From IMG/VR virus record IMGVR_UViG_3300023179_000020: 64,000 nucleotides of DNA; one strand, 5' to 3'. The notes below the pieces were generated by a model, which did no database searches, was not told the origin of the DNA, and saw nothing but the letters and a program-made list of their open reading frames with translations. Source of the stretch: a virus. This document shows, piece by piece, positions 2,821-58,052 of this stretch (its first letter is position 1; each line of letters starts with the position of its first letter). Made by a program: the position numbers and the translations under genes.

Positions 2821-3270
2821 ATGATACGATTAATGGATTTATTGAAAGAGGCTCCTAAGAAAGCTGCTAAATCTTTAGAGAGCTTTATTGTAAATGGTAG
2901 TGAGTTCAAAACAAAATATGCTACCGATTTCAAAGGTAAAATAGCAAAGGTCCTATATAAAAATAACCTGAATATCGGATCTAATATGGGTAAAGGATCC
3001 TATTGGTGCGTAACACAAGACTGCCTTGACATATACTCAGGAGAAAGGGATCAGGAGTTTGGATCCAAATATGCTATGTACGTAAAGGATATCGTATACA
3101 AACCAGTACCTAACAACATAAAAATTCTTGTAAAAGAAGGTATTGCATGGGATTTATGGCAGGGGAAGAGTAAAGATAAGTTGTATCTAGAAATAACAAA
3201 GATAGCAGACGGAGTATATGATCCGGATCAAGATGATTTTGGATTATTATTATTTAAGAATATAAAATGA
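2821..3270 (+). CDS. leader-bearing (MIRLMDLLKE) putative internal virion protein, possibly ART-like
   Basis: 10-aa leader shared with 5 other ORFs; GKGSYW...Y and DGVYD segments weakly ART-like. Confidence 0.65.
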   Translation: MIRLMDLLKEAPKKAAKSLESFIVNGSEFKTKYATDFKGKIAKVLYKNNLNIGSNMGKGSYWCVTQDCLDIYSGERDQEFGSKYAMYVKDIVYKPVPNNIKILVKEGIAWDLWQGKSKDKLYLEITKIADGVYDPDQDDFGLLLFKNIK

Positions 3271-3743
3271 TACGATTAAAGGATTTATTGAAAGAAGTAA
3301 CTGGTTTAGATTATTTACAATCCGTTCAGTCCGATGAACCTTTTAATACCAATCAACCTTTATACCACTTAGTTCTGCAATCTAATTTAGATAAAGTTGT
3401 GATGGAAGGATTAAAACCTTCGCAACCAAAAGCTTCTATGAAAGGAGGATCTATAAAAGGAGAATCATTCAAAGGAGTTTGGCTCACATCCTTAGATGAC
3501 CCCGCTGCTATTGTGGATATTCATATGTTACCACGTAAATACGAATACGAAGGAGTGATATTGGAAATAGATGGTAGTAAATTAGATCCTAAGTTGTTTA
3601 GTATAGGAATTGAAATACCGCCTAATTTATTATTAAAAGTTAATAAAGGCGAGAAAATATCTCGTAATGATTATTATGAACAATCAGAAGAGATTGTTTA
3701 TTTAGGAGTGATACCTCCAACAGCAATCACACCCATCAATTAA
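3267..3743 (+). CDS. leader-bearing (MIRLKDLLKE) ADP-ribosyltransferase/Tpt1(KptA)-like protein
   Basis: LYH..L..V..EGLKP...GVWLT...VILEID...E.VY...IPP pattern of the Tpt1/ART fold. Confidence 0.65.
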   Translation: MIRLKDLLKEVTGLDYLQSVQSDEPFNTNQPLYHLVLQSNLDKVVMEGLKPSQPKASMKGGSIKGESFKGVWLTSLDDPAAIVDIHMLPRKYEYEGVILEIDGSKLDPKLFSIGIEIPPNLLLKVNKGEKISRNDYYEQSEEIVYLGVIPPTAITPIN

Positions 3744-3760
3744 AGCACCTTTATCAAATT
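3724..3760 (+). repeat. 37-bp direct repeat, copy 2 (duplicate thyA 3' end)
   Basis: matches 2767-2803; reads QSHPSIKAPLSN-stop in the thyA frame. Confidence 0.95.
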
Positions 3761-3767
3761 AAATACT

Positions 3768-3795
3768 AAAAGGCTTGGATTTCCAAGCTTTTTTT
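3768..3795 (+). terminator. intrinsic terminator overlapping a TTGG..TATATT promoter
   Basis: ggcttgga-ttt-ccaagc hairpin followed by T run. Confidence 0.65.
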
Positions 3796-3809
3796 ATTAT
3801 ATTCAAAGT

Positions 3810-4064
3810 ATGAAACATCCTTATGACTTACAAGAAGAGTTAGATGATACTCATTCGGCGTATGTACAACTAATGCAAAACAGATTGGATTGGTGTGTAG
3901 AGACTGAGCGATACGAAATGGCTGCTCGATTAAGAGACTTAGTCAAATACGAGACAACAACCGATGAACAATATAAACACCAGTACTACTTAGAGTTGCT
4001 TAAAAAATATGCTCCTGAGTGCCCAGAATTTTATGAACGAATGAAAGAAAAATATAAGTTATGA
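3810..4064 (+). CDS. UVR (UvrB/UvrC motif) coiled-coil protein
   Basis: ERYEMAARLRD matches the UVR consensus. Confidence 0.65.
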   Translation: MKHPYDLQEELDDTHSAYVQLMQNRLDWCVETERYEMAARLRDLVKYETTTDEQYKHQYYLELLKKYAPECPEFYERMKEKYKL

Positions 4065-4384
4065 CATACGAAACATTTTTAAAATTAACGCTTGAGTTAC
4101 AAAAACAAGAGCGCATTATAGACAACTTGTATGAAAACAAGATTGACCTAAATGAGTTTATAGATCCGTATCACGGTTTAATCACTTTACTGATTAAAGA
4201 AATTTATGGTGAGGAAGGTGTTGATTGGTGGTCTTGGTTCTGCTATGAGAATAACTTTGGTCAAGGCACATTAGAGGCATGGGATAAAGATGGAAAACGA
4301 ATCTGTTATAGTCTTGAATCACTTTGGCAGTATTTAGAGGCAATTAGAGTAAAGAATCATTTTAGTTTTGTTAAAACTAAATAG
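4061..4384 (+). CDS. hypothetical phage protein
   Basis: ORF; DWWSWFCYENNFG aromatic motif. Confidence 0.7.
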   Translation: MTYETFLKLTLELQKQERIIDNLYENKIDLNEFIDPYHGLITLLIKEIYGEEGVDWWSWFCYENNFGQGTLEAWDKDGKRICYSLESLWQYLEAIRVKNHFSFVKTK

Positions 4385-4410
4385 CATACTTTGGTACCAT
4401 ATTTATTAGT

Positions 4411-5307
4411 ATGGTACTGTTGAGTATTTTTTTTGTAATTATTCTTAGTATTGTATTTTTTTTACATAAAAAGAAAACTCAATCTGTTGTCTCTCAACTT
4501 TCAACTATACAACTTGAATTAGAAAACAAAAACCAAACACTTGAGTCTCAAAAACAAGAATTGGTTTCAAGTCTAAATTACGCTCACGAAATTCAAAAAG
4601 CATTATTACCAGGAGAGGAATTTATCAAAAGATATCTTCCTCTTTCATTTTTCTTTTATAAACCAAAAGACATTGTGGGTGGTGACTTTTTTTGGTTCCA
4701 CAAAATAAATGAACACACATACATTATTGTTTGTGCTGACTGTACAGGACATGGCATACCAGGAGCATTTATGACTATGCTTGGGAATAGTTTTTTAAAC
4801 CAAATTATAGTTGAAAATAAAACATATGATTTGTCTCAAATACTGTTTGAAATGGATAGATTGGTGAAAACAACGCTAAAACAAAACAGAATCAATCAGT
4901 CAATACAAGACGGTATGGATATGGCTATAATTAAAATTAACAAACAAAATAAACAATTACAATTTGCTGGAGCAAAACACAAATCTGTTTTATTCAAAAA
5001 AGACCAAATATGTGAATTAAAGGGTAATCGATTTGGAATTGGAGGCAATGCTGAAAAAAAATTTGATCAAATCACTGTTGAATATGAAGAGGATGATACA
5101 CTGTATTTGTATACAGATGGATATGTAGATCAATTTGGTGGTCCTGATGATAAAAAATTTTCAACAAAACAATTCCATGAATTGTTACAAATAATCCATT
5201 ATAAACCTATAATTGAACAGTATGAAAAAATAAAATCCACAATTAATAATTGGAAACATGGATTTGAACAAACAGATGACATTACTGTTATAGGAATAAA
5301 ATTTTAG
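4411..5307 (+). CDS. membrane-anchored SpoIIE/RsbU-type PP2C phosphatase
   Basis: TM + coiled coil + IQ.ALLP, VGGDFF, ADCTGHGIPGA, DGMD, YTDGYVDQFGG, QTDDIT. Confidence 0.92.
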   Translation: MVLLSIFFVIILSIVFFLHKKKTQSVVSQLSTIQLELENKNQTLESQKQELVSSLNYAHEIQKALLPGEEFIKRYLPLSFFFYKPKDIVGGDFFWFHKINEHTYIIVCADCTGHGIPGAFMTMLGNSFLNQIIVENKTYDLSQILFEMDRLVKTTLKQNRINQSIQDGMDMAIIKINKQNKQLQFAGAKHKSVLFKKDQICELKGNRFGIGGNAEKKFDQITVEYEEDDTLYLYTDGYVDQFGGPDDKKFSTKQFHELLQIIHYKPIIEQYEKIKSTINNWKHGFEQTDDITVIGIKF

Positions 5308-5368
5308 TAAGACTTTTCCTTTGGTTGAACATATTTATACCTGTATAACAAAACAAGTAAAAATATAA

Positions 5369-6043
5369 ATGGACAGTATTATTACAACTGTAATCACATC
5401 AATTACATCAATAATAGTTACATTAATAACGGCGGGGTATTTTAAGAAATGGTTAGATGAAAAATATCAGTCTCATTCTAAAAGAAAACTAATGAATCAA
5501 ATCAACAAAGATGAATTGGTTCATCTTACAGTTGAAGAAATTAAAAACGAATACGAGGCAGATAGAGTATACTTAATACAATTCCATAATGGTGGAACGT
5601 TTTATACTAATTCTCCGATGCAAAAAGCATCTGTTACTTATGAAAGAACGTCTGATGGTTTAGAACCATTATCAAACAACATGGTAAATTTCTTTGTAAG
5701 CCACTACACGTCACTTATCAAATCCACAATTGAAAATAAATTTTTCTATACAAACATAGAAAAAATTGAAGACATAACAACCAAAGCGTTACTTAGAAAA
5801 ACAAGCACCCAAGCATCAGCTTCTATTCCAATTTATGATAAGGGCAGTTCTAAATTTGGGTCACCAAATGGTAACCTAATAGGAATACTAGTAATTGACT
5901 GGGTATTCAGTGATGTGCCTAAAAGATTTGTAAAAAGCAATGCTAGCACTATTGCATCGGGTTGTTGTTTTACAGAAGAATTTAAAGAACATTTGTTACA
6001 GAATGGTGAATCAGTTGCTAATTTGATTAAGCAAAATCAATAA
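5369..6043 (+). CDS. TM + GAF-like domain protein (candidate T4 gpT-like holin)
   Basis: N-terminal TM; ADRVYLIQFHNGG...SIPI...LIGILVIDW GAF pattern; near lysis genes. Confidence 0.55.
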   Translation: MDSIITTVITSITSIIVTLITAGYFKKWLDEKYQSHSKRKLMNQINKDELVHLTVEEIKNEYEADRVYLIQFHNGGTFYTNSPMQKASVTYERTSDGLEPLSNNMVNFFVSHYTSLIKSTIENKFFYTNIEKIEDITTKALLRKTSTQASASIPIYDKGSSKFGSPNGNLIGILVIDWVFSDVPKRFVKSNASTIASGCCFTEEFKEHLLQNGESVANLIKQNQ

Positions 6044-6094
6044 TAACTTGTGTAATTAACTTTATTTTCATATATTTATAACAAATAAACAATT

Positions 6095-6394
6095 ATGAAA
6101 GACAATTTTAACATATACAAGTGGAGACGTGATCATTTGACGGAAAATGAAAATCCAAAACAAACTGTATCTCCAGAAGAACTGTTTAAGGCTTTTAAAG
6201 AAAAATTTGATACTGGAAGCCATCGTCCTGACCAAAATAGAATCAAAACTGTAAGTAAATTAATGGATGATAAAAAGGTAGATGCTGCTATAAAACTTTT
6301 TAATGAAAAGGGATACAATGTTAAAATAGAGTATATAGATCACGATTCTAAAGAAAGACCAGAAGAAATATATTTTGATTACACGAAAAAATAA
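6095..6394 (+). CDS. late hypothetical protein (leader ending LTE)
   Basis: ATATTTAT upstream; MKDNFNIYKWRRDHLTE. Confidence 0.65.
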   Translation: MKDNFNIYKWRRDHLTENENPKQTVSPEELFKAFKEKFDTGSHRPDQNRIKTVSKLMDDKKVDAAIKLFNEKGYNVKIEYIDHDSKERPEEIYFDYTKK

Positions 6395-6418
6395 TTTCCT
6401 TTTTTATAAAATAAATTT

Positions 6419-6437
6419 GGCCTTCGGGCCTTTTTTT
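6419..6437 (+). terminator. intrinsic terminator overlapping promoter
   Basis: ggcc-ttcg-ggcc followed by T7. Confidence 0.7.
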
Positions 6438-6463
6438 ATTATATTTACGTAAAATAAAAAGTT

Positions 6464-6796
6464 ATGACAAACACAATTGCACTTAAAGACAACTATTCGT
6501 TGCAAATCATTGCTGACAACTGGGACAAAGTTATTTATGTATGGTTAGCAGACGACCGTGTTAACAAAAACACTCTATTATCAACATGGAGACATGGAAA
6601 ATGGGAAACCAATAATTTTAACAGTGGACAGTTTTTTGAATTGGCTAAAAGGTATTCTAAAGTAAAAAGATGTATACGCAATGCTTTTGAACATATTCAC
6701 AATACTGAATATGAAACTACTGTTAAAAAAACATGGGTTAAATTTAACTGTCTTAAGCGTCGTGTTAGAATGAAATTTTATAAAATAATTCACTAA
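6464..6796 (+). CDS. hypothetical protein
   Basis: ORF after TTTGG..TATATTT promoter. Confidence 0.65.
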   Translation: MTNTIALKDNYSLQIIADNWDKVIYVWLADDRVNKNTLLSTWRHGKWETNNFNSGQFFELAKRYSKVKRCIRNAFEHIHNTEYETTVKKTWVKFNCLKRRVRMKFYKIIH

Positions 6797-6837
6797 TCTA
6801 TTTTTAGTCTGTTGATATTTATGATAAACAACAGGCT

Positions 6838-7383
6838 ATGCGATTATACAGTTATTCTGAATTAAAAGACCAATTTGATAGACTCGGGTACCAATTCCCG
6901 AGTTTTCATATCGTTGGAATACGCTCAAATGCTAATAAACCAAATGAATTTGATGATTTGATTGGTTTAATAAACAATTCTAATGTATCATGGTTTACAG
7001 GCACAACCAACCCAGGCACCCATTGGCTTAAAAACCTGATGAATCCTAAAGGCACAGCATTGCTAAAGCCAGGCCAATACAAAGACAGTTGGAAATTAGG
7101 ATTACACCGCAACCAATACAAAGCACTTGTACAATGTGCCCCAATTACTGTCTTTAGAGACAAAGACAAAGATGCAATTGCTGAAGAAACAGCAGTTACT
7201 GATACTGGTATTTTTGGTATCAACATTCACAGAGCAAATCCAAATGCTGTTAGTAAATTTATTGACAAATGGTCTGCTGGTTGTCAAGTGTTGAATAATC
7301 CTACTGACTTTAAGAAACTTATTGATGCTTGTGATGCGTCAGGATTGTCTCGATTTACTTACACATTACTAAAAGAATTTTAA
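6838..7383 (+). CDS. putative endolysin (YkuD/L,D-transpeptidase-like His-Cys motif)
   Basis: GINIH...WSAGCQV; followed by holin- and spanin-like genes; late motif upstream. Confidence 0.6.
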   Translation: MRLYSYSELKDQFDRLGYQFPSFHIVGIRSNANKPNEFDDLIGLINNSNVSWFTGTTNPGTHWLKNLMNPKGTALLKPGQYKDSWKLGLHRNQYKALVQCAPITVFRDKDKDAIAEETAVTDTGIFGINIHRANPNAVSKFIDKWSAGCQVLNNPTDFKKLIDACDASGLSRFTYTLLKEF

Positions 7384-7384
7384 T

Positions 7385-7657
7385 ATGAAAACTAAAAAGT
7401 ATTGGATTGACAAGGTAGTATCATCAAACAGTGGTGTATCATCAAAACGTGTTGCTGGTATTTTTACACTAGTAAACATAATTGTGTTTTGTTATGCTGC
7501 ACTATTAAGAGACATGGAATTACCTGAATACATGTTTGAAGCAATTTGTTTATTGGCTGGTAGTTTACTTGGTATTACTACATTTGAAAACATATTCAGA
7601 AAACCTACTCCACCACCTACTGATACAACTAACACAACAAACGAATCTGGACAATGA
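7385..7657 (+). CDS. putative holin (2 TM)
   Basis: SSKR followed by two hydrophobic helices; adjacent to endolysin candidate. Confidence 0.6.
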   Translation: MKTKKYWIDKVVSSNSGVSSKRVAGIFTLVNIIVFCYAALLRDMELPEYMFEAICLLAGSLLGITTFENIFRKPTPPPTDTTNTTNESGQ

Positions 7658-8022
7658 AAAAATTTATTGAAAAAAGTTGGTATTACTTTATAATGATAGC
7701 AATGATAATTGTTATTGTTAAGCTTTATTACAAACCTGCTACTACAATTGTAGTTGAGGATACAAAAGCAATTGAACGATTAAGATTTACTGTAGACAGT
7801 TTAACAAACGCACACCTTGCTTTTCAAGAAGATATAGCCAACCAACAAGCTGTTTTAATAGAAAACATTACAAAACAAAATAAAAAGTATGCTAAAAAAA
7901 TTAATGATATTCCTAAGCTTAGTGACCCTGAGCGTGACAATATTTGGTCAGACCTTAACACCAGTGAGGATAGTTTACCAGGGAGATACTGGGATATTCT
8001 TGAACAGAAAACAGGAAAATGA
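7654..8022 (+). CDS. putative i-spanin-like protein
   Basis: N-terminal TM + coiled coil; overlaps next gene. Confidence 0.5.
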   Translation: MKKFIEKSWYYFIMIAMIIVIVKLYYKPATTIVVEDTKAIERLRFTVDSLTNAHLAFQEDIANQQAVLIENITKQNKKYAKKINDIPKLSDPERDNIWSDLNTSEDSLPGRYWDILEQKTGK

Positions 8023-8332
8023 AGTTATAAAAACCTATAAATACAAAGAAATTTATAAGGTTAATCTTGATTCAATGTTTAAGTATGCTAATAGGTGTGC
8101 TGATGCTGTATTAGAATGTAATCGTGCTTACGGTGACTTAAAAGTATCATACAATAAACTTGAAGCAAAAGCCACTGAGTATAAGAACGATGCTATAGAA
8201 TGTGCTGCATTGAATAAAAAAGCACTATCGGATTTGAATACAGAAAACAATAGAAAAAGAATTTGGAGAAGAATTGCTATTGGTGAAGGTGTGTTTATAT
8301 TGGGGGTAGGAGCATTATTTTATTTTCTATGA
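7889..8332 (+). CDS. putative spanin-like protein (signal peptide, coiled coil, C-terminal TM)
   Basis: overlapping frame with 7654..8022, as in spanin pairs. Confidence 0.5.
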   Translation: MLKKLMIFLSLVTLSVTIFGQTLTPVRIVYQGDTGIFLNRKQENEVIKTYKYKEIYKVNLDSMFKYANRCADAVLECNRAYGDLKVSYNKLEAKATEYKNDAIECAALNKKALSDLNTENNRKRIWRRIAIGEGVFILGVGALFYFL

Positions 8333-8658
8333 AACACTGTTTATTAGCATTACTATTATTCTTCAGTTTTAACATTTATTCTCAAGTATACGTTCCCAAT
8401 GCGTTTTCACCTAACGGGGATGGACACAATGATGTGTTTATAGTTTCATCTCAAGACACATTAAGTCGTTATCACCTTAGAATTTATAATTGTTATGGTG
8501 AATTGATTTTTGAATCACAAAACCAAAACGAACCATGGCTAGGAGGCAATGAATACTACGCCATGTCCAGCAGATACATATACTTGTTAACCTGGTTAGA
8601 AACAGAACCAGCATTGGTTGAAATGAAAGTTAAGGGTTGTGTAACACTTTTGCGATAA
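8329..8658 (+). CDS. signal peptide + T9SS type-B (gliding-motility-associated, CHU_C) C-terminal domain
   Basis: VPNAFSPNGDGHND.F...IYN..GELIF...W.G...Y.Y...KG.VTLLR. Confidence 0.88.
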   Translation: MKHCLLALLLFFSFNIYSQVYVPNAFSPNGDGHNDVFIVSSQDTLSRYHLRIYNCYGELIFESQNQNEPWLGGNEYYAMSSRYIYLLTWLETEPALVEMKVKGCVTLLR

Positions 8659-8707
8659 AATTTGGCTGTTCACAAATTTGTTCGTATATTTAATTAAAAT
8701 TAAGGTT

Positions 8708-9265
8708 ATGACAACATTAGTAATTCATCCTAAAGACAGAACAACAGATTTCTTAAAACAAATCTACAAAAACATTCCTAATAAAACAGTTATTACTGGT
8801 GGAACAGATAAACAATCCATCATTCAACTAATCGGAATGCATGATAGGGTTTTACTTATGGGCCATGGCTCGCCTAATGGTTTATTTTCAGTAGGACAAT
8901 TCAATTTGGATATGTATTCTTCATCCTACATTGTAGGAGATGGATGTGTTGAAGCATTAAGAAAAAAGGATAATGTATTGTATTTGTGGTGTAATGCTGA
9001 TCGATTTGTAAATTATCATAAACTAAAAGGTTTGTATTCAGGTATGTTTATCAGTGAAACTGGTGAAGCACATTACTGTAGAGTAAGAACAAGCCGAACA
9101 CAAGTTACAGAATCAAATGACTTGTTTGCTTATTTGTTAGGCGAACAATTAACCACAGATAAACCACTAACCCAAATTCATCAAACAGTAAAATCACTTT
9201 ACAGTGAAATGGCTGAATACAATCCAGTAGCAGAGTATAATAATGAAAGATGGTATCATGCATAA
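8708..9265 (+). CDS. putative clan CD (caspase/CHAT/gingipain-like) peptidase
   Basis: VLLMGHG and VLYLWC His/Cys motifs; start moved to ATG 8708 after promoter. Confidence 0.5.
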   Translation: MTTLVIHPKDRTTDFLKQIYKNIPNKTVITGGTDKQSIIQLIGMHDRVLLMGHGSPNGLFSVGQFNLDMYSSSYIVGDGCVEALRKKDNVLYLWCNADRFVNYHKLKGLYSGMFISETGEAHYCRVRTSRTQVTESNDLFAYLLGEQLTTDKPLTQIHQTVKSLYSEMAEYNPVAEYNNERWYHA

Positions 9266-9980
9266 ATTAGTAGCCATAGGAGACATTCATGGACTCACTA
9301 TTTGGAAGGATATTCTTGAAAAAGAACAACCAACCACAGCAGTGTTTATAGGAGACTACTTTGATAGTTTTGACATTCCAGGTATAGACCAAATCTATAA
9401 TTTCAAAAACATTATACAATGGAAACTTGACAACCCACAATGCCAAGTAATAATGTTGATTGGTAATCATGATTATCATTACTTCTCATCTGTGATGGGA
9501 AAGACTAATACAAGTGGATTTCAAAGAGCATTATATCCTGAAATTAATAGAGTATTAGAGGATAATAAGCATTATTTACAAATGGCTTTTCAATATGATG
9601 ATTTATTATTCAGTCATGCAGGTATTAGTCCTGAGTTTTTAATTGATTGTAAGTATAATAGTGGAAACATAGTTGATACAATAAATGATCTTTGGAATTA
9701 TAAACCACTAATATTCAATTTTGCTGATACAGGATGGGGGCATAGTGATCCTTATGGTGATAACACATACCAAACACCAATTTGGATTCGACCTAAGAGT
9801 CTAATGAAGGCAGGGAAAAGTATTAAAAAACAATTTATTCAAGTAGTAGGACATACCAAAGTAAAAGAAATTGATCCTGGTAAAGCAACAGGTGGACGTT
9901 ATTACTTTATTGATTGTTTGGATACTAGTGGTGAATATTTAGTATACGAAAACAAACAAATAAAAATAAACAAACTATGA
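9258..9980 (+). CDS. calcineurin-like metallophosphoesterase
   Basis: GDIHG, GDYFD, GNHD, SHAG, VGHT. Confidence 0.93.
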   Translation: MHKLVAIGDIHGLTIWKDILEKEQPTTAVFIGDYFDSFDIPGIDQIYNFKNIIQWKLDNPQCQVIMLIGNHDYHYFSSVMGKTNTSGFQRALYPEINRVLEDNKHYLQMAFQYDDLLFSHAGISPEFLIDCKYNSGNIVDTINDLWNYKPLIFNFADTGWGHSDPYGDNTYQTPIWIRPKSLMKAGKSIKKQFIQVVGHTKVKEIDPGKATGGRYYFIDCLDTSGEYLVYENKQIKINKL

Positions 9981-10114
9981 AAACATTACTTAAACTTATT
10001 TTAATTTCAATTTTGTTTTATTCATGTGTAGCCCAAAAACCAGCATGGTACAGGCCTGGAAGCGTTTCTAGAACAAATGTTTATCAAAATGGTGGATGTG
10101 GCTGGTCAAAATAA
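9977..10114 (+). CDS. small lipoprotein (45 aa, not in ORF track)
   Basis: MKTLLKLILISILFYSC lipobox-like; ATGA overlap. Confidence 0.55.
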   Translation: MKTLLKLILISILFYSCVAQKPAWYRPGSVSRTNVYQNGGCGWSK

Positions 10115-10201
10115 AAAAATCTTCAACTTCTCATGCAAAAGACTTGGATTTCCAGGTCTTTTGTCGTATATTTAATCAAATAATTAAAAACAATAAAAGT
10201 T

Positions 10202-10468
10202 ATGGCAGTAGATTTTGAAATGTTTACAGAAGAAGGTAATGAGGCATGTACTCAAGCTTACCAAAACATCTATGATGTTATTTTTGGGAGTAAATTTATT
10301 CCTGAAGCAGAATTAAAAGCAGTTGTAAAAGCAGAAATCAAACAAGTATCCCTGACACATGGAGAAGTGTATGACACAGAACCTGAATGGCATTTTGTTG
10401 ATAGAATCAACATGGCTTTAGAAACTAGAGGATATAGCTACAGAGTAACTAGAAACGATTTATACTAA
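10202..10468 (+). CDS. early hypothetical protein
   Basis: ORF after CTTGG..TCGTATATTT promoter. Confidence 0.75.
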   Translation: MAVDFEMFTEEGNEACTQAYQNIYDVIFGSKFIPEAELKAVVKAEIKQVSLTHGEVYDTEPEWHFVDRINMALETRGYSYRVTRNDLY

Positions 10469-10475
10469 AAATACC

Positions 10476-10784
10476 ATGACAAAAGATCAAAAAGACAACA
10501 ACATTCTTACAGAAATGTATCGTAGGGCATTTGCTGCCAGTACACCAAAAGGTGATTTTGATGAATTAATGGCAAATGCTGCAATCAACGAATTTGGACA
10601 ATTCGTAATTCCATATAACGACTATACTTGTGATCATAGTGTTATGGAACAAATTGTTGAAGATGTGTTAAAAGAAAATAAAGTACCAAAATGGAGACGT
10701 CAAGGATTCAAAAATGCATTTATGCTTGGTTGTTCACCAACTTCATTTCCTTTTATTGCCACAAATGTCCAAAAACAGAAATAA
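10476..10784 (+). CDS. hypothetical protein
   Basis: ORF. Confidence 0.7.
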   Translation: MTKDQKDNNILTEMYRRAFAASTPKGDFDELMANAAINEFGQFVIPYNDYTCDHSVMEQIVEDVLKENKVPKWRRQGFKNAFMLGCSPTSFPFIATNVQKQK

Positions 10785-10785
10785 A

Positions 10786-11013: not shown

Positions 11014-11022
11014 TTAAAAACA

Positions 11023-11749: not shown

Positions 11750-11794
11750 ACAATTAAAAAAACACATAGAATCACTCCATAAAAAATAAAAAAT

Positions 11795-13365: not shown

Positions 13366-13375
13366 ACACAGTGGT

Positions 13376-21314: not shown

Positions 21315-22199
21315 ATGATTAAACTAACTGACTTACTTAAAGAACTGGACATACGTAAGGGTCAATTACGTGGTGTTATAGATGATGAAATAATGTATAA
21401 CTACTTCGCTGTTGACTTCGGAATTGCTGAAGAAGATTTAGATGATACAGTAGATGAAAGTTTAATAGAAGGAAAATACGACGAATTGATTGAAGTAGAG
21501 GGTTATAGATTAATAGAAGTAACTCAAACTACTGAAAGGACAAAATGGTTAGTAAAACCTGATGCTCCAACCTGGAGACAATACATTGTGGGAAGTGTAG
21601 AAATGGATTTGATTGACACCTATGACAGGTCTGCTGATAAAGCTTATAAAATAAGTGGCGCACAAGTTGTTTTAAGTTATGTTAGTAAGCAGTATAGAGG
21701 AAAAGGGATAGGATCACTCATGTACTACATGATATTTGTTCATTATGGTAACCTGTTTTCTGATAAAATACTGTATGAAGGATCATACAACCTATGGTTA
21801 AGTAAAATTTACCCTATAGCTGACTTTTTTGGAATAGAGGTGTGGGGTACTTTTTACGCACCTATAACTTTAAAAGATGCTTCAAATGTAAAATTAATGC
21901 GTAACCCAGCTGTGTCAGCATTTTTAGCAAGTAATGTTCCTACAGAACAAATGGAAAAATTAAAGGCTGAATTGAATGGTTTATCTTTGGCTAATGGTGA
22001 CTATGGAATTTATTTTTACGGTGGAGACAGCACTAAATTTGTAAATCTAGTAGACCAAAGTGAAGGTATAAATGATTTATTGTCTGATAAAATGATGGAA
22101 GCAATATTTCCAGCCAATATAAACCCTGAAAAAATATTGGTTAATACAACTAATTTGGTATTTGTAGTAGGACAGGACATGGTTCCTATGCCTATTTAA
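21315..22199 (+). CDS. leader-bearing (MIKLTDLLKE) GNAT-like acetyltransferase
   Basis: leader + YVSKQYRGKGIGSLMY acetyl-CoA motif A; late motif upstream. Confidence 0.7.
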   Translation: MIKLTDLLKELDIRKGQLRGVIDDEIMYNYFAVDFGIAEEDLDDTVDESLIEGKYDELIEVEGYRLIEVTQTTERTKWLVKPDAPTWRQYIVGSVEMDLIDTYDRSADKAYKISGAQVVLSYVSKQYRGKGIGSLMYYMIFVHYGNLFSDKILYEGSYNLWLSKIYPIADFFGIEVWGTFYAPITLKDASNVKLMRNPAVSAFLASNVPTEQMEKLKAELNGLSLANGDYGIYFYGGDSTKFVNLVDQSEGINDLLSDKMMEAIFPANINPEKILVNTTNLVFVVGQDMVPMPI

Positions 22200-46962: not shown

Positions 46963-47015
46963 TATTTATAATAAGAAATTTGGCTTAGTCAAGTTTTGTT
47001 ATTATATTTATTAGA

Positions 47016-47813
47016 ATGATTAAACTAACTGATTTATTAAGAGAAGTTATAAATAACCCAAAAGCTATAATCATGGCTGGCGGTGCATCAGTTGGTAAAT
47101 CAACAGTACTAAAATCGTTACAACCCGTATTAAAAGGATTTGTAGACTTAAATGCTGACAAATATGTTGAAGATAAAGATTCTCCAATGTATGGTAATTT
47201 ATCTGCTGCCTCTGTTCAAATAAAAAAAACGGATTTACCTAACACTATTGACAACCAACAAAATCTTATTTACGACACTACAGCTTCTAATTTATCAACC
47301 CTTCAACCTACATTAGACATGTTAAATGATAAAGGGTATGAAATAATGATGATAATGGTTTATGCTCACCCCATAGTATCATTTTTAAGAAACTATAAAC
47401 GTGAACGTAAAGTACCAGCAGTTGGTGTTTTAGGAACATGGGTTAATGTTTATAATTTATTAGAAGAATATAAAAATATATTTGGTGATAATTTTGTATT
47501 AGTACATACACCTGCTAGTTCCGAAGAACAAACAGAAATAGATAATTTTGAATCTGCTTATCAACAGGGTACTTTAAAAGAATACTTCTCAGATCTATTA
47601 TCTTCAGGTCAATTTCAATCAACCTTTAGAAAAAGTGATGTTGGTTTATCACCTGAAGAATTAGAAAAACGAGAAAAAGACAGAGCCAAAACTAAAATTG
47701 TTTTAGAAAAAAACATAGATAAAATAGCTGATACATACGAGACTATTCAATCAAATCTAACCCCAGTTGATATGAAAGAATTGCCTAACATTGTTAAAAA
47801 TTTTGTTAGATGA
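47016..47813 (+). CDS. leader-bearing (MIKLTDLLRE) zeta-toxin/AAA_33-like P-loop kinase
   Basis: AGGASVGKS, NAD, IYDTT, RN..RER. Confidence 0.8.
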   Translation: MIKLTDLLREVINNPKAIIMAGGASVGKSTVLKSLQPVLKGFVDLNADKYVEDKDSPMYGNLSAASVQIKKTDLPNTIDNQQNLIYDTTASNLSTLQPTLDMLNDKGYEIMMIMVYAHPIVSFLRNYKRERKVPAVGVLGTWVNVYNLLEEYKNIFGDNFVLVHTPASSEEQTEIDNFESAYQQGTLKEYFSDLLSSGQFQSTFRKSDVGLSPEELEKREKDRAKTKIVLEKNIDKIADTYETIQSNLTPVDMKELPNIVKNFVR

Positions 47814-49618
47814 AATCATTAGTAAAATCACTTATAACACCGTTTTTAGCAGAAGTTGATATTCCTGTTCCAACTAAAACAATAGGTGTATTTGGAGGTG
47901 GGTTTCAACCACCAACAAAAGGCCATTTTGAAGTTGTTAAAAAAGCATTAGAATACCCTAACATAAACGAATTTAACATTTATGTTGGTACAGGTGGAGG
48001 CAGATCAGAAACAATTACCCAAGAACAATCAGTGGCAATTTGGAATATATATAAAAATTATTTACCTAGTATAGTAAATATTATTCCAACAGATAATCCA
48101 ATTACTTCAATTTATTCTTTAGCTAAAAATGAACCTGACACTCAAATCAAATGGTTTTTAGGGTCACGTGAAGGTAAAGAAGAAGATTTTGCTGATTTTG
48201 AAAAACGTACCAAATCTGCTTTAGGCAAAACAAATATTGAACCCATCAACATTATAACTTCAGATGGTATTAGTGGTACTAAAGCTAGAGCAGTATTAGA
48301 CGATAAAGAAAAATTATTTGCCTATTTGCCTGACATTGAAGAAACAGATAAAGAACAAATATACTCTATTCTACACCCAGTAGAAGAAGGAGAAGAAATA
48401 ACAAATTTTCTTGAAGAAAAAATTCAAGGTGATAGTATAGTTTGTGATAATTGTGGTTGGACATGGAAAATAGAGGATGGCGGAAACGATTTATTTATTT
48501 GTCACAAATGTGGACATGATAATACTCCTAAAAAAGAAACAACTAATTTCTTTGAACCATTACAAAACCAAGACATAGACATTAAAATATCTTCAGAACC
48601 TACTAGAGTTGACTATTATAAAGACCATATTAAAAATGTAGTACCATCTGATTTTAAAGTTGAAAAACATAAAGATAAAATAGTAGTTTCTAACATTTCT
48701 AAACCAGGACTAGAACATAACCCTGAATTTAAAGATAAATTAGTATCATTAACATTGTCTATGATAGATAATGGTATAAACATTGAACCGTTACCCGATT
48801 TAGTTTTTATAGAAGATGATAAGAAAAATGCAAACAACATATTAGGACGTACTGCTCATTATGACCCTAATAATAAATGTATTACTTTATACACTTATGG
48901 TCGTCATCCTAAAGACATATTACGTTCATACGCTCATGAAATGATTCATCACATGCAAAATCTTGAGGGTAGAATTCATGGTATTGAAGGACAAAACATA
49001 AATGAAGATGAATATCTAAAAGAATTAGAATTAGAAGCATATAGTAAAGGCAATATGTGTTTTAGAGGATGGGAAAATTCACTTAAAGAAAATATTAATG
49101 AATGGATTATTGATATTCCAAAATTTAATCAACCTAAAACATTTATAGATAATTTACGTGAATCTTTAAATGAAATTGTTTTGTCTAAAGAAAATGCAGT
49201 TGATATAGAGGGAAGTTTAACCGATGGACAATTTGTAGTAGGAGACCAAAAATATATTTATAAAATTAAAGAATTTCCAACACCTCCATATTACGACCCA
49301 GGTGTATTCTACAATATAGAATTTTATCCTGAAGGAAACATAAGTTCAGAACCGCAAGGAGGAAAAGAAAATTATGTAAAAATATTATCTACTATGTATA
49401 AAATAATAGTAGATTTTACTGAACAAGAAAAACCAAAATACATAGGTATTGCTTCTCTTGATAATGAAGGAAGCAAAAGTTACCATACAGTATATGCTAA
49501 TTTAACAGACAATAAATTTAACAGAATACCTGGATACTTTAGAAAAGATGTATCTTTAAAATTTGATGGGCCTAGGGGAAAAGGAAAAATGATAGTACTA
49601 AAAAGAAAAGATGATTAA
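47810..49618 (+). CDS. multidomain protein: (H/T)xGH nucleotidyltransferase + Zn ribbon + HExxH zincin-like + C-terminal domain
   Basis: GGFQPPTKGH, ISGT..R; CDNC/CHKC; HEMIHH. Confidence 0.8.
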   Translation: MKSLVKSLITPFLAEVDIPVPTKTIGVFGGGFQPPTKGHFEVVKKALEYPNINEFNIYVGTGGGRSETITQEQSVAIWNIYKNYLPSIVNIIPTDNPITSIYSLAKNEPDTQIKWFLGSREGKEEDFADFEKRTKSALGKTNIEPINIITSDGISGTKARAVLDDKEKLFAYLPDIEETDKEQIYSILHPVEEGEEITNFLEEKIQGDSIVCDNCGWTWKIEDGGNDLFICHKCGHDNTPKKETTNFFEPLQNQDIDIKISSEPTRVDYYKDHIKNVVPSDFKVEKHKDKIVVSNISKPGLEHNPEFKDKLVSLTLSMIDNGINIEPLPDLVFIEDDKKNANNILGRTAHYDPNNKCITLYTYGRHPKDILRSYAHEMIHHMQNLEGRIHGIEGQNINEDEYLKELELEAYSKGNMCFRGWENSLKENINEWIIDIPKFNQPKTFIDNLRESLNEIVLSKENAVDIEGSLTDGQFVVGDQKYIYKIKEFPTPPYYDPGVFYNIEFYPEGNISSEPQGGKENYVKILSTMYKIIVDFTEQEKPKYIGIASLDNEGSKSYHTVYANLTDNKFNRIPGYFRKDVSLKFDGPRGKGKMIVLKRKDD

Positions 49619-50180
49619 ATTAACTGATTTATTAAAAGAAGTAGAAGATCAAAAATATACTATCTATTGTGACATGGATGGAGTATTAGTAGACTTTGAT
49701 AAGGGTTATAAGGATTTAACAGGAATGTCTACTAAAAAAGCTAATACGTATCCTAAAATGTTTTTTTGGAGATTTTTTAGAAAGAAATTAAAAGAAAAAA
49801 AAATGGATGAAAAAGATTTTTGGGCTAATTTAGAATCTTATCCTGGAAAAGAAGAATTATGGTCCTATATATCACCATACAAACCAAATATACTTTCATC
49901 CCCATCAATAGACTTTAAACTCCCTCCAAATCAACAACTTGACCCAGAGTATAATGAAGCTATTCAGGGTAAAAAAGCATGGATTTCAAATAATTTAAAT
50001 AATGTAAATAAAGAAATTTTTGTTCCTGCCTCTCAAAAACAACAATTTTCTGGCGAAAATAAAATACTTATAGACGATAGAGAAGACAATATAGAACAAT
50101 GGAAAAGTAAGGGAGGAATAGGTATCCTTCACACTTCTGCTTCTGACACAATTAAACAATTAAAAGAATTAAAATTATGA
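49611..50180 (+). CDS. leader-bearing (MIKLTDLLKE) HAD 5'(3')-deoxyribonucleotidase-like phosphatase
   Basis: DMDGVLVDF, ILSS, K..W, LIDD...N...W...GG.GI. Confidence 0.85.
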   Translation: MIKLTDLLKEVEDQKYTIYCDMDGVLVDFDKGYKDLTGMSTKKANTYPKMFFWRFFRKKLKEKKMDEKDFWANLESYPGKEELWSYISPYKPNILSSPSIDFKLPPNQQLDPEYNEAIQGKKAWISNNLNNVNKEIFVPASQKQQFSGENKILIDDREDNIEQWKSKGGIGILHTSASDTIKQLKELKL

Positions 50181-50518
50181 AAAAATCACAATTACAACAG
50201 ATTATTAAAGAAGAAATTCAAAAAGTATTAAATGAAAACAAAGCTAATGATTTAAAAAATTTTATTAAAACAAATAAAGAAGAAGTAATAAACCAATTAA
50301 ATCAAAGAGAAAAAAAGAACAAAGACGCTAAAACCATTGATTTTAACATAATATATACTAAAGGAGACAAGGTTTATGCGGAGAGAGATTATCTTCCTAT
50401 TGGAGAAACAAATAAAGAAAATACAAGTCTAGATGAAATATCATTTAGTAAAACTACAGGTAAATACGAAATAACAGTATATGGACAAATATTGAAATAT
50501 TCAATATATAATATATAA
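50177..50518 (+). CDS. late protein with MKKSQLQQIIKEEIQKVLNE leader
   Basis: leader family B. Confidence 0.7.
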   Translation: MKKSQLQQIIKEEIQKVLNENKANDLKNFIKTNKEEVINQLNQREKKNKDAKTIDFNIIYTKGDKVYAERDYLPIGETNKENTSLDEISFSKTTGKYEITVYGQILKYSIYNI

Positions 50519-55026: not shown

Positions 55027-55703
55027 AACAACGCCTCCTAGAAATAATAAAAAAAGCATTAACAGAACAACCCAAAAAGAAAAAATGCGATTGTGGTTGT
55101 AATGAATGTACTAGTGCTCCTTTATTAAACGAATCTAAACAATACAACATGGCTATTTCTGAAAACATGAGATACCATTTAGACAACAAGATTCAAATCC
55201 ATGACAACATTTTCAGACCAGGCTCAAAATCACACATTGAACTGATTCATGAAGCTCGTTTGTTATGGAAAAAAGAAATTATTGAATTAAAAGAAACTGA
55301 TAAACATTTATTTGAAAACACAGATTTAGGTCGTTTTGGAATGTATGAAGGTGAGGTGGTTCCACTTGATTATCCAATGATGGAAATTGAAACTTTAACA
55401 GAAGCTGAATTAGAAGAAGAAAAGAAACAACCTGCTTTAGGTAAACCAAAACGTGGTGGTTCTAAAAAGTTTTATGTTTATGTTAAAGATCCTAAAACCA
55501 AGCGTATTAAAAAAGTATCATTTGGTATGGCAGGTGGTGGATTAAGAGCAAAACTTAATAATCCTAAAGCACGTCAAGCGTTTTCAAAAAGACATGATTG
55601 TCCTAATAAAAAAGACAGAACAAAGGCGTCGTACTGGAGTTGTGCATTGCCCCGTATGGCTAAGCTACTAGGGTTCAAAACCACTTACACAGGGTATTGG
55701 TAA
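55023..55703 (+). CDS. modular late protein
   Basis: LTE/LNE/LEE-separated modules; KKFYVYV...KVSFG...F..RH.C...YWSC. Confidence 0.75.
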   Translation: MKQRLLEIIKKALTEQPKKKKCDCGCNECTSAPLLNESKQYNMAISENMRYHLDNKIQIHDNIFRPGSKSHIELIHEARLLWKKEIIELKETDKHLFENTDLGRFGMYEGEVVPLDYPMMEIETLTEAELEEEKKQPALGKPKRGGSKKFYVYVKDPKTKRIKKVSFGMAGGGLRAKLNNPKARQAFSKRHDCPNKKDRTKASYWSCALPRMAKLLGFKTTYTGYW

Positions 55704-55745
55704 GGGAAGCTACACCCCCAATATTTATAATAAATTGGAGGGAAT

Positions 55746-56372
55746 ATGGCTTATGTTTATCTTATAACTAATGTCATCAACAATAAAAAATATATTGGAT
55801 CTTCTAGAAAGACTCAAGTTGATGAAAACTATTATGGTAGTGGAAAAGCATTAAAAAATGCTTTAAAAAAACATGGTAAAGAAAATTTCACTAGAGAAAT
55901 ATTATGGGAAGGTGAGGGAGATGCTCGAGTTATGGAAACATATTATTTGACAAAATTTAACGCAGCTGGAAATTCAATGTTTTATAATATGACTAATGAT
56001 GCTAGAGGAAATAATCTTCATAAAGAAGAAACTAAAAAGACAGTTAGTGAAAAACTAACAGGACGTAAATTCTCAAAAGAAACTTGCGAAAAAATATCTA
56101 AAGCCAAAACAGGTTCAACAACATCTAAAAAAGGTAAACCCGATGGCCCTAAACCTAATGTATCTAAAGCTCATAAAGGCAGAATAAGTCCTAATAAAGG
56201 AAAAGGTAACCCTGTAGCTTTATATAAAACATCAGGTGAATACATCCAAACATATCCTAGCTATCATGATTTAGCTCTTGATCTTCAAATTAACCCAGAA
56301 ACAGTAAGATGTCAACTTATTGGGAAAGCTCAAACTATTAAGAATAAGCAATATAGGGCTCAATATGTATAA
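55746..56372 (+). CDS. GIY-YIG homing endonuclease (SegA-like, NUMOD3)
   Basis: YVYLITN...KYIG, YYGSG, F.REIL, YN; ETKK.VSE and ETCEKISKA repeats. Confidence 0.88.
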   Translation: MAYVYLITNVINNKKYIGSSRKTQVDENYYGSGKALKNALKKHGKENFTREILWEGEGDARVMETYYLTKFNAAGNSMFYNMTNDARGNNLHKEETKKTVSEKLTGRKFSKETCEKISKAKTGSTTSKKGKPDGPKPNVSKAHKGRISPNKGKGNPVALYKTSGEYIQTYPSYHDLALDLQINPETVRCQLIGKAQTIKNKQYRAQYV

Positions 56373-56376
56373 TCAT

Positions 56377-56760
56377 ATGAAACTAACACACATACTCCTT
56401 CAACTTCTTTTAGAAAAAAAAGAAGACAGATGTAAACGTATTGCTGATCGCAAATACGATAAACCATCTGCTTATAAATCAGGTGCAATTGTTAGATGCC
56501 GTAAGGGTGAAATTTGGAAAGATTTAAAAGAGGATGAATTAACTGAAAAACAAAAAGAAACCCTCCGCACCTGGTTCAAACGTAAAGGTGCTCCTGGTAA
56601 AACAGGTGGGTGGGTAGACTGTAATACTTGTAGAGACGGTAAATGTAAGCCTTGTGGTAGAAAAGAAGGAGAAAAACGTGCTAAATACCCTTCATGTCGC
56701 CCCACACCATCTCAATGTAAAACACCTGGCAAAGGCAAAAAATGGGGAAAAACAAAATGA
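56377..56760 (+). CDS. Cys/Lys-rich modular late protein
   Basis: MKLTHILLQLLLE leader; SAYKSG and L..WF...WVD...CGR...YP.CRP modules split by LKE/LTE. Confidence 0.7.
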   Translation: MKLTHILLQLLLEKKEDRCKRIADRKYDKPSAYKSGAIVRCRKGEIWKDLKEDELTEKQKETLRTWFKRKGAPGKTGGWVDCNTCRDGKCKPCGRKEGEKRAKYPSCRPTPSQCKTPGKGKKWGKTK

Positions 56761-58052
56761 TTAAACTAACTAACATATTAAAAGAAATATTATTAACTGA
56801 ACTTAACAAGCAACAGTTAGATAGTATAGCTAAAGCATTAGGTGCTGAACGTACTAGTGAATTTGATAGTAAATTAAATTCATTAAATGCTAAGGGTATG
56901 ACTTACCCTGATATTTTAAAACAAGTTAAAGATGGTGTATCTCAAGGAAAATCTCCTGAAGAAATTTTTAGTAGCTTATCATCAACAGTAGGTAAATCTT
57001 CTAAAGATCTAGAATCAGATTTTGAAACTATAATTGATAATGAAAATATTATAGTACAAGTACCTCATACCCACGCTGCATCTCGCAAATTAGGCTTATC
57101 TACCTACGCTTATAGAGTATGTAAAGATGGCAGCAAAGATTCAGCCTGGTGTACCACTTATAAAATCCCAGATCATTTTAGAATTTATTACCATGATCAA
57201 AACAAAACTCTCTATTATATAAAAGTTAAATCTCCTGAAATAATACAACAATTAAAAGACAAGGGTTTGGCATCTTTAGTTGTATCAGCAGTTGTTGTTA
57301 ATGACAAAAATAATATAAGTGTTATATTTGATGGAAAAGATAAAGATATCCCATCTAATTGGTATCCCGCGTATCTAAAAATATTAGGACTTGATAAATC
57401 AATATTTGTTAATAAACGCTCTAAAAAAGAACGAGATTTAGCATTAAGTAGCGCTCAACTTGAACAGATGAAATATTATATTAAAAATGGAAGTAAAGGT
57501 CCACTAGAGATAGTAAAACTAGACTCTGAACTTCCTAGTGATTTAACTTTAGTTGGAGGTGATTTAAAATTAATTGCTTCTAAAATAACTAAATTACCTG
57601 ATAATTTAGTAGTTAAAGGTAAACTTATTATATCCCAATGTCCAAATATAACAACCATTCCTGAGGGTATAAAATATAAATCTCTAGCGTTATTTAGATG
57701 TCCTGCTATAACCTCTATTTCTAAACCTAAAAATAAAATAGAAGATTTAACTATAGATGATTGTCCCTCATTTACTGAACTTCCAAAAGGTATAAAAGCA
57801 AAATATATAAGAATTCAACAATGCCCACAATTCTCTAAATTACCTGATAATCTTACAAGTTCAACTGTAGATATTCGAAGTTTAAAAGTAAGTGAGATGC
57901 CTAATAATCTTAAAGTATATAGATTTCTATTAGCTGATACTCCTTTAGCTAAAAAATATGAATATGATGGGAATCAAATTATTAAGGCAATTCAAGATAA
58001 AGGTGGTGAAATAGTAAATTTTTCTTCTTTTAAACTTAATATAGTGATGTAA
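56757..58052 (+). CDS. leader-bearing (MIKLTNILKE) protein with WCT module and LRR-like repeats
   Basis: SAWCT; LP..L.V.G.L repeats; start moved to ATG 56757. Confidence 0.75.
   Translation: MIKLTNILKEILLTELNKQQLDSIAKALGAERTSEFDSKLNSLNAKGMTYPDILKQVKDGVSQGKSPEEIFSSLSSTVGKSSKDLESDFETIIDNENIIVQVPHTHAASRKLGLSTYAYRVCKDGSKDSAWCTTYKIPDHFRIYYHDQNKTLYYIKVKSPEIIQQLKDKGLASLVVSAVVVNDKNNISVIFDGKDKDIPSNWYPAYLKILGLDKSIFVNKRSKKERDLALSSAQLEQMKYYIKNGSKGPLEIVKLDSELPSDLTLVGGDLKLIASKITKLPDNLVVKGKLIISQCPNITTIPEGIKYKSLALFRCPAITSISKPKNKIEDLTIDDCPSFTELPKGIKAKYIRIQQCPQFSKLPDNLTSSTVDIRSLKVSEMPNNLKVYRFLLADTPLAKKYEYDGNQIIKAIQDKGGEIVNFSSFKLNIVM

Follow-up and report, generated by a model that had tools for sequence, protein, structure and literature searches.

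A 64,000-nt stretch of DNA (hereafter, the window) from an uncultured T4-like phage carries six open reading frames that begin with the same 10-residue peptide, MI(K/R)Lx(D/N)(L/I)L(K/R)E, and continue into unrelated proteins. This leader, whose general form is MIKLx(D/N)(I/L)LxE, is probably a T4-type, lineage-specific capsid-targeting propeptide that would be cut after Glu10. The tagged genes lie on the + strand and start at positions 2821, 3267, 21315, 47016, 49611 and 56757; all six starts read as a preliminary description of this DNA had reported. A six-frame scan confined the leader motif to these six ORF starts and placed each copy 3-12 codons downstream of a stop, and the degenerate DNA pattern of the leader matched 6 times, where 100 dinucleotide-preserving shuffles led to an expectation of 0.01. 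The same description had noted a late promoter motif 12 nt before three of the start codons and an overlap with the upstream stop codon at the other three, and both observations were confirmed: ATATTTAT stands 12 nt 5′ of the ATG at 2821, 21315 and 47016, and the upstream stop is overlapped by ATGA at 3267 and 56757 and by 8 nt at 49611. None of the tail, baseplate and identified replication proteins in the window carries the tag.

What follows the leader changes from gene to gene. The first tagged gene (2821..3270, + strand, 149 aa, ATATTTAT at 2809-2816) joins MIRLMDLLKE to a cargo without family assignment, and its stop codon is overlapped by the start of the second (3267..3743, + strand, 158 aa), where MIRLKDLLKE precedes an ADP-ribosyltransferase-superfamily (ART) cargo with a KptA/Tpt1-like fold. 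The AF2 model of the latter protein reached a mean pLDDT of 86.8, with residues 1-10 below 50, the tag being the sole terminal segment with such values. The top Foldseek matches of this cargo all belonged to the ART superfamily (KptA, with E 1.9e-4 and TM ~0.45, Tpt1, DarT, pertussis S1 and Arr), and its modelled fold is that of an ART, nearest to KptA/Tpt1. Invariant residues of the family include H34, within an LYH motif, and E116/E142. In the third gene (21315..22199, + strand, 294 aa, ATATTTAT at 21303-21310) MIKLTDLLKE is followed by a GNAT-like cargo that scored 14.5 bits with Pfam Acetyltransf_7, below the cut-off of 27, and 0.97 in Atlas to Acetyltransf_1 clusters (211/256 features; Acetyltransf_1 in 63% of members). 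We treat the GNAT assignment as a lead only. An orthologue bearing the identical tag is present in L083.

The fourth and fifth tagged genes share one unit. The fourth (47016..47813, + strand, 265 aa, ATATTTAT at 47004..47011 on the + strand) fuses MIKLTDLLRE to a Zeta-toxin-type P-loop kinase (Zeta_toxin, PF06414; 51.1 bits against a Pfam gathering cut-off of 22.3, E 1.5e-13, residues 13-133), homologues of which start with MIPFILKE in HTVC008M and with MKTFAELQE in Melnitz. The fifth (49611..50180, + strand, 189 aa) overlaps the 3′ end of a 602-aa gene at 47810-49618 and couples MIKLTDLLKE to a 5′-deoxynucleotidase of the HAD superfamily (NT5C, PF06941; 28.7 bits against a Pfam gathering cut-off of 24.8), which also matches the 5′-3′ deoxyribonucleotidase family phrog_2643 in PHROGs (8.7e-27). 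Finally, the sixth (56757..58052, + strand, 431 aa) carries MIKLTNILKE in front of a domain of unknown function and a C-terminal half that forms an LRR solenoid, for which the matches were consistent though their E-values were weak. Thus, the cargo families named in the preliminary description mostly hold, namely the kinase (here of the Zeta type), the HAD phosphatase (NT5C), the ART/Tpt1-like fold and the LRR, while its GNAT stays below the Pfam cut-off.

The tag is not restricted to the window. A scan of uncultured viral contigs with a catalogue of the cargos, a check that the preliminary description had proposed, found the tag on at least 150 different cargos (153 after removal of redundancy). 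Their consensus is M-I-K-L-x-(D/N)-(I/L)-L-x-E, and conservation ends past E10. Position 4 is Leu in 152 of the 153, position 7 is Ile or Leu in all of them, position 8 is Leu in 148 (Ile in the rest) and position 10 is Glu in all 153, counts that are partly circular because the retrieval pattern itself fixed several positions; position 9 is free (K/R/N/S/L/H). Five complete tag-bearing genomes contain 4-5 tagged genes each, a load near that of T4. No cultured phage bearing the tag was found, and the strict tag is absent from HTVC008M, Melnitz, Mel-JY01 and immuto.

Variation at the codon level indicates what is being conserved. The six window copies of the leader differ by synonymous changes (ATA/ATT, CGA/AAA/AGA, TTA/CTA/CTT/TTG, GAT/GAC, GAA/GAG), and therefore the peptide, not the DNA, is the conserved entity. 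Across the tagged genes, all six Leu codons are in use at L4, six Leu codons plus two Ile codons are in use at position 8, and there is free variation among the codons for Ile, Lys, Asp, Asn and Glu, with no change in the residues encoded. These data bear on the idea that the element acts as a nucleic acid, either in the mRNA, where it would serve translation initiation or form an operator comparable to the targets of T4 RegA, or as a recombination linker through which cassettes are exchanged, with a functionless peptide. The leader is AU-rich and located at the start codon, translational coupling affects three of the six starts, and cassette exchange falls exactly at the leader boundary, all of which such an element would accommodate. 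We nevertheless regard it as very improbable, given that residues are fixed where codons vary, that third codon positions in the window copies are less conserved (0.73) than first and second positions (0.82), and that very different peptide tags replace each other on the same cargo.

This replacement is seen in several cargo families, which carry as alternatives the MIKL tag, MDRLEKLINE, a tag beginning with MKKSQLKQLIKEEI or MDNFDLxKYLAEGKLxE. Orthologues of the NT5C at 49611 exist in tagged, degenerate-tag and untagged forms, and the family of the ART cargo at 3267 also occurs with a T4 IP-like tag (..VKTYESFLDE) and with a tandemly duplicated MIKL tag. Exchange in the other direction, of cargos behind a retained tag, is apparent around 56757, a hypervariable cassette site. 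Its conserved left flank (56365..56760, + strand) encodes a basic 'DRCxRIAxRKYDKPSAY' protein whose own tag has decayed to MKLTHILLQ and which in relatives carries MIKLxDILxE or MDRLEKLINE, and its conserved right flank (58052..58309, + strand) encodes an 85-aa protein. Between these flanks, 1-4 different tagged genes were found in 11 contigs. The site resembles the polymorphic ip loci of T-even phages, where the cargo is swapped and the capsid-targeting sequence (CTS) alone is conserved (PMC3012670).

The closest sequence matches to MIKLTDLLKE are T4 propeptides. In the T4 record (cleavage marked by an arrow), gp24 begins MAKINELLRE↓S, Alt begins MELITELFDE↓D, and ipII and ipIII begin MKTYQEFIAE↓A; those of gp24 and Alt come nearest, and the tag agrees with the T4 propeptides in its length of 10 residues, in being hydrophobic at positions 4, 7 and 8 and acidic at position 6, and in ending with Glu10. 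The CTS of IPI, IPII and IPIII is likewise a 10-residue N-terminal peptide on unrelated proteins that ends in (L/I)-x-E, in a lineage with a gp21-type protease. Fusions and suppressor genetics have proven the T4 CTS, in which targeting is directed by residues 4 and 7 and processing by residues 8 and 10, with gp21 cutting after L/I-x-E; on ejection, the DNA is accompanied by the internal proteins and by Alt (PMC9026906). The two systems also differ. The MIKL tag, a predicted signal, is distinct in sequence from the T4 IP CTS, and its cargos include sizeable enzymes scattered along the genome, whereas T4 IPs are small basic proteins. T4 gp24 is a structural vertex protein, while the MIKL tag is found on accessory cargos and was not seen on any capsid paralogue. 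T4 Alt, an ADP-ribosyltransferase, is packaged and injected; the cargo at 3267 also has an ART fold, but a KptA/Tpt1-like one, and is no Alt homologue. In a sister lineage the tag itself is T4 IP-like. On a 238-kb contig, ~25 of 37 consecutive genes begin with MKxVKTFESFLNE, nearly identical to MKTYQEFIAE and MKTFKEFIKE of T4; loci with this tag contain zero MIKL tags, and four of five such partial contigs encode an S77 protease.

Processing after Glu by a T4-related protease is also known from the giant phages phiKZ, 201phi2-1 and SPN3US, in which gp21 homologues cleave the propeptides of ejection and inner-body proteins at S/A-x-E; as with the MIKL tag, many head-internal proteins would be served by one protease, and the SPN3US paralogues gp53 and gp54 have conserved N-termini in common (PMC5694885). 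Giant-phage propeptides are mostly at least 100 residues long with a small residue at P3, whereas the MIKL tag has 10 residues and Leu at P3.

A candidate processing enzyme is encoded by the relatives of the window. Locating the prohead protease had been another suggestion of the preliminary description, and a Peptidase_S77 gene was identified in all five complete tag-bearing genomes of 170-183 kb (E 1e-24 to 4e-37), located within a TerL-portal-protease-scaffold-MCP module that recurs in phage immuto, the nearest relative with a name; the window itself contains neither a protease nor a head module, and no protease was found in the contigs closest to it, all of them fragments. Capsid targeting of this type requires S77, but its presence in large T4-like genomes discriminates poorly. 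In the tag-bearing genomes, the protease N-termini retain the LLIE-like motif of T4, and the capsid proteins show QLVTE↓A in alignment with the T4 gp23 site FLTE↓AEIGG; P3 of this predicted capsid-protein site is Val, not Leu.

The timing of expression was read from gene context. The window contains 26 copies of ATATTTAT on the + strand and 6 on the - strand, with none between 6815 and 21303. The motif sits before structural genes at 27450, 30704, 33406 and 41420, and, in five complete genomes of relatives, before the genes for TerL, portal and head completion, a distribution that points to a late-type promoter of this lineage. All six tagged genes lie within units headed by it. It stands directly upstream of 32 of 143 tagged genes (22%) and of 186 of 1236 others (15%), a modest enrichment (odds ratio 1.6, p = 0.03). 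The modular, T4-type address tag that the preliminary description had put forward is favoured by the likeness to T4 propeptides, the S77 protease of complete genomes, tag swapping, the cassette locus, the late-type promoters and the position of the tag outside the folded domain, and is weakened by the absence of protease and head genes from the window and by the weak enrichment of ATATTTAT.

On the capsid-targeting reading, tag-bearing proteins would be produced late, and the short amphipathic peptide at the N-terminus, with its hydrophobic positions 2, 4, 7 and 8, would bring the cargo into the prohead scaffolding core. A gp21-type (Peptidase_S77) prohead protease would then clip the tag after Glu10 at (I/L)-x-E, and the freed cargo would remain in the head and reach the host together with the DNA. 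The separability of tag and cargo as modules would let cargos be exchanged fast at plastic loci.

A short N-terminal peptide common to unrelated proteins would also be expected if the tag were a docking or recognition peptide for a non-capsid partner, such as a modifying enzyme (for instance of the radical-SAM type), a chaperone, a protease of the host or a degradation system, as in RiPP-like or chaperone recognition, and immuto-type phages do encode GroEL/GroES. We consider such a partner unlikely. No radical-SAM family was detected by Pfam among 46 window proteins (ten more were scanned with PHROGs only), and no rSAM-like CxxxCxxC protein was present in 1878 ORFs of MIKL loci, where the sole matches belonged to a small CxCGCxxC family. 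A consistent co-occurrence of another gene was not found either, and a non-capsid partner does not predict several tags that resemble T4 CTS and propeptides and whose terminal (I/L/V)-x-E marks a sharp boundary between modules.

Another possibility accepts the tag as a prohead-protease propeptide and places the action of the cargos in the producing cell or the maturing head, as DNA- or nucleotide-handling proteins or core/scaffold accessories, rather than as injected effectors. The NT5C nucleotidase and the P-loop kinase are nucleotide-metabolism-type enzymes that maintain conserved synteny adjoining primase and exonuclease in a replication neighbourhood. This synteny and the untagged NT5C of a relative also weigh against the capsid-targeting reading itself, as both could be plain cytoplasmic metabolic enzymes. 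Small basic proteins such as the left-flank family look like DNA-associated internal proteins, and related tags occur on small proteins adjoining the protease in head modules. We hold this alternative to be improbable as well: T4 offers the precedent of internal proteins and Alt leaving the head along with the DNA (PMC9026906), cargos of the ART-fold, Zeta-kinase and LRR kinds are typical of effectors acting on another cell's components, and the rapid turnover of the cassettes fits arms-race genes. The cargos may include an immediate host-takeover or anti-defence payload, as the preliminary description had suggested.

Since the principle has already been proposed for T4-like phages generally (PMC9026906), the MIKL tag extends a known mechanism and does not constitute a new one. 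A broader and more tentative idea, to which we give rather less than even odds, is that lineage-specific tags act as 'zip codes' in co-evolution with the protease and core of the prohead, so that MIKLxDLLxE, MKxVKTFESFLNE and others would address a large shared pool of hundreds of cargo families that pass between lineages by swapping tags. If so, the proteins injected at time zero by uncultured aquatic phages could be listed from the tag alone, including ART-fold proteins, GNATs, Zeta-type kinases and deoxynucleotidases for host takeover or anti-defence. In T4, proteins that counter restriction and an enzyme that modifies RNA polymerase belong to the head-delivered class. With its diversity and fast turnover, the tagged set would be a good hunting ground for functions in anti-defence and host takeover that are new. 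Like the T4 CTS, the tag could also be used to load foreign proteins into phages that infect non-model hosts. Head-carried proteins are otherwise found only through virion proteomics of cultured phages; if the tag is truly capsid-loading, those of uncultured T4-like phages, co-delivered with the DNA, could be listed directly from sequence.

Six ORFs on the + strand of the window, named here by their start coordinates, open with the 10-residue peptide MI(K/R)Lx(D/N)(L/I)L(K/R)E (MIKL tag). The N-termini read from the ORFs, MIRLMDLLKE (2821), MIRLKDLLKE (3267), MIKLTDLLKE (21315 and 49611), MIKLTDLLRE (47016) and MIKLTNILKE (56757), are those of the preliminary description, which had also correctly placed the motif ATATTTAT, the putative late-type promoter motif of the lineage, 12 nt ahead of the ATG in three ORFs (2821, 21315 and 47016), and the starts of the other three (3267, 49611 and 56757) in overlap with the upstream stop codon. 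A six-frame scan of the window revealed no copy beyond the six and located a stop codon 3-12 codons ahead of each. The degenerate DNA pattern of the tag matched the window 6 times, against 0.01 matches expected from dinucleotide-preserving shuffles. The window has a GC content of 31%, bears nearly all its genes on the + strand and contains five tRNAs and the baseplate/tail module of a divergent myovirus. At 24242-24315 ARAGORN called a tRNA-His whose anticodon, ATG, is atypical of this tRNA.

The proteins downstream of the tag (cargos) had been described as unrelated enzymes, and most of these assignments held. By Pfam score, 47016 encodes a P-loop kinase of the Zeta-toxin type (51 bits, cut-off 22.3) and 49611 an NT5C deoxynucleotidase (28.7 bits, cut-off 24.8), the latter also matching phrog_2643 (9e-27). 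The 56757 cargo is a domain without assigned function fused to an LRR solenoid, the two being encoded by separate genes in other contigs. The AF2 model of 3267 (pLDDT 86.8) has an ADP-ribosyltransferase (ART) superfamily fold, all strong Foldseek matches belonging to this superfamily (KptA/Tpt1, DarT, pertussis S1 and Arr). For 21315, GNAT is no more than a lead, with an Atlas score of 0.97 and a Pfam score under the cut-off, and the 2821 cargo is without family assignment. Since residues 1-10 are the sole terminal segment of the 3267 model with a pLDDT below 50, the tag is predicted to be an appendage outside the fold.

Beyond the window, the degenerate pattern found the MIKL tag in at least 120 IMG/VR loci. 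Among the matches listed, all 133 in viral contigs mark the start of an ORF that is 60 aa or longer, and 124 of them have a stop codon no more than 25 codons away; collapsing similar cargos among the matches listed left 153 different cargos with M-I-K-L-x-(D/N)-(I/L)-L-x-E. Across these 153 cargos position 9 varies freely, L8 and E10 are fixed, and the residues past E10 are not conserved. These frequencies are partly circular, several positions being already fixed by the retrieval pattern. In cellular genomes, a much larger collection, just 65 of 122 matches start an ORF of this length. Many of the cellular matches are unrelated N-termini, for example of FtsE-like ATPases, and those with the same cargos as the viral ones lie on phage-like MAG or SAG contigs; the scan of these 122 matches gave no evidence of cellular use of the tag. 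Complete tag-bearing genomes contain only 4-5 tagged genes each. The strict tag was not found in the cultured relatives HTVC008M, Melnitz and Mel-JY01, and Flavobacterium phage immuto, the nearest named relative (45% identity in the baseplate wedge; immuto 77-116 kb syntenic with the window), has only relics of it, namely MISIYNILKE, MIKLIDLLTE and, within its NT5C, NLADLLLEE. Flavobacterium is the host of the closest cultured relatives of the lineage.

Because the tag codons differ synonymously, the constraint operates at the peptide level. In the window and related loci together, 159 non-redundant tags use all six Leu codons at L4, and six Leu and two Ile codons at L8, a pattern indicating that selection acts on the tag peptide and not on DNA or RNA. 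Different tags also substitute for one another on the same cargos: the same families carry MIKL-type, MDRLEKLINE, MKKSQLKQLIKEEI.. or MDNFDLxKYLAEGKLxE tags, the NT5C family is also found without a tag, and cargo homology begins 1-6 residues past the Glu of the tag. A DNA- or RNA-level element, which we hold to be highly improbable, was rejected on this codon diversity and tag substitution. The 3267 cargo family occurs with a ..VKT(Y/F)ESFL(D/L)E tag and with a tandemly duplicated MIKL tag, the homologue P0010 reading MIRLKNLLKE-ESGNT-IRLKNLLKE. In another lineage, represented by the 238-kb JGI contig L143, ∼25 of 37 consecutive genes (2500-20400) begin with MKx(V/I/L)(K/H)T(F/Y)ESFL(N/D)E (KTF tag), and their cargos carry the MIKL tag elsewhere. 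This tagged set is far larger than in the MIKL lineage. Nineteen more viral loci contain 43 KTF-tagged genes and none has the MIKL tag. The window itself holds further recurrent N-terminal tags, MKKSQLQQIIKEEIQKVLNE and MKINELKQIIREEIEKVLAE, MNKEFLRMQQLAGIITE and MKDNFNIYKW, on the genes at 50177-50518, 60927-61196, 62782-63564 and 6095-6394. Some cargos carry these in place of MIKL, and small protease-adjacent proteins in the head modules of relatives (immuto_198, immuto_201 and ORFs of the viral locus L136) have related N-termini.

In the T4 record (NC_000866), gp24 begins with MAKINELLRE|STTT, Alt with MELITELFDE|D, ipII and ipIII with MKTYQEFIAE|A and ipI with MKTFKEF... MIKLTDLLKE has the same length as the gp24 and Alt propeptides and agrees with them at positions 4, 6, 7, 8 and 10, and the KTF tag is a match of the internal-protein type, close to MKTYQEFIAE and MKTFKEFIKE. 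The latter opens a 54-aa ORF on the minus strand of T4 (ATG ending at 19130), an N-terminus resembling the capsid targeting sequence (CTS) that is additional to ipI, ipII and ipIII. Packaging of T4 IPIII needs no more than the first 10 residues; targeting by the CTS depends on residues 4 and 7, processing depends on residues 8 and 10, and gp21 cleaves after L/I-x-E (PMC9026906). The internal proteins of T-even phages are diverse and share the CTS as their sole conserved part (PMC3012670). A capsid-targeting propeptide system of the T4 type is the best-supported mechanism for the MIKL tag, and we consider it probable. The tagged protein would be made late, its amphipathic tag would dock it to the prohead core, a protease of the gp21-type family S77 would cut after Glu10 and the cargo would stay in the head for delivery with the DNA. 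We infer targeting, cleavage and injection of the tagged proteins.

The five complete 170-183 kb tag-bearing genomes all encode a Peptidase_S77 inside a TerL-portal-protease-scaffold-MCP module. One example of a cognate Peptidase_S77 protease gene is L134:10981-11601. No protease was found in the closest contigs (L084, L094, L083 and L086), fragments that are 24-61% complete. In these five genomes QLVTE|A of the capsid proteins aligns with T4 FLTE|AEIGG, and the protease N-termini have the QLLIE of T4 in two (G002 and G003) and LLID in the others. S77 is also present in 4 of 5 partial KTF-tag contigs, and immuto has a gp20/gp21/gp23-type head module. The window itself is without a head module. 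Candidates for the large terminase (61196-62779) and the portal (63598 onward) were rejected, as neither matched its immuto counterpart. A Megablast search with 20 kb of the window matched no cultured phage, and the baseplate wedge was the sole match when most of its structural proteins were compared with PHROGs and Pfam. No virion proteome was found for any phage that bears the tag. Recognition of the tag by a different partner common to the tagged proteins, a modifying enzyme for example, seems unlikely; its radical-SAM version was rejected, no such enzyme being found among the scanned window proteins and MIKL loci.

All six tagged genes belong to units headed by ATATTTAT, with a modest enrichment of the motif directly upstream of tagged genes. 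In the window ATATTTAT is strongly strand-biased (26 sites, for example 2809, 21303, 30704 and 47004, vs 6), precedes structural genes and is not found in the block that small ORFs and tRNAs occupy; in the five relatives it precedes TerL, portal and head-completion genes. In related loci this conserved promoter-like motif precedes the ATG by exactly 12 nt in 10 of 32 cases, a frequent spacing that implies very short 5′ untranslated regions. A SpoIIE/PP2C-type phosphatase gene with a hydrophobic N-terminus (4411-5307; Pfam 8e-25) likewise has ATATTTAT 12 nt before its ATG. No identified replication protein of the window carries the tag, nor does any tail or baseplate protein. The nucleotide-metabolism cargos sit in the replication neighbourhood, which favours an alternative to which we assign a small probability, namely that the tag is a genuine propeptide but its cargos do not act as injected effectors.

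A cassette site lies between 56365-56760 and 58052-58309. In 11 contigs these two flanks are conserved around an interior of 0.8-2.6 kb that accommodates between one and four different genes, almost all of them tagged. The left flank encodes a basic 'DRCxRIAxRKYDKPSAY' protein, which in relatives carries MIKLxDILxE or MDRLEKLINE and in the window begins with MKLTHILLQ (Gln for Glu10), directly downstream of an inserted homing endonuclease. The 85-aa right-flank protein is a paralogue of residues ∼341-422 (window 62219-62461) of the 527-aa ORF 61196-62779. GIY-YIG homing endonucleases are encoded at 44120-44560 and 55746-56372 (SegE_GIY-YIG, 7e-26; phrog_314, 1.5e-33); both adjoin plastic regions with tagged cassettes and may promote the exchange of these cassettes.

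The capsid-targeting principle is established for T4 and has been explicitly suggested for T4-like phages in general (PMC9026906); neither the MIKL nor the KTFESFLNE tag was found described in the literature searched. If the capsid-targeting reading is true, the tag would mainly be useful as a sequence handle on the head-delivered proteins of uncultured phages.
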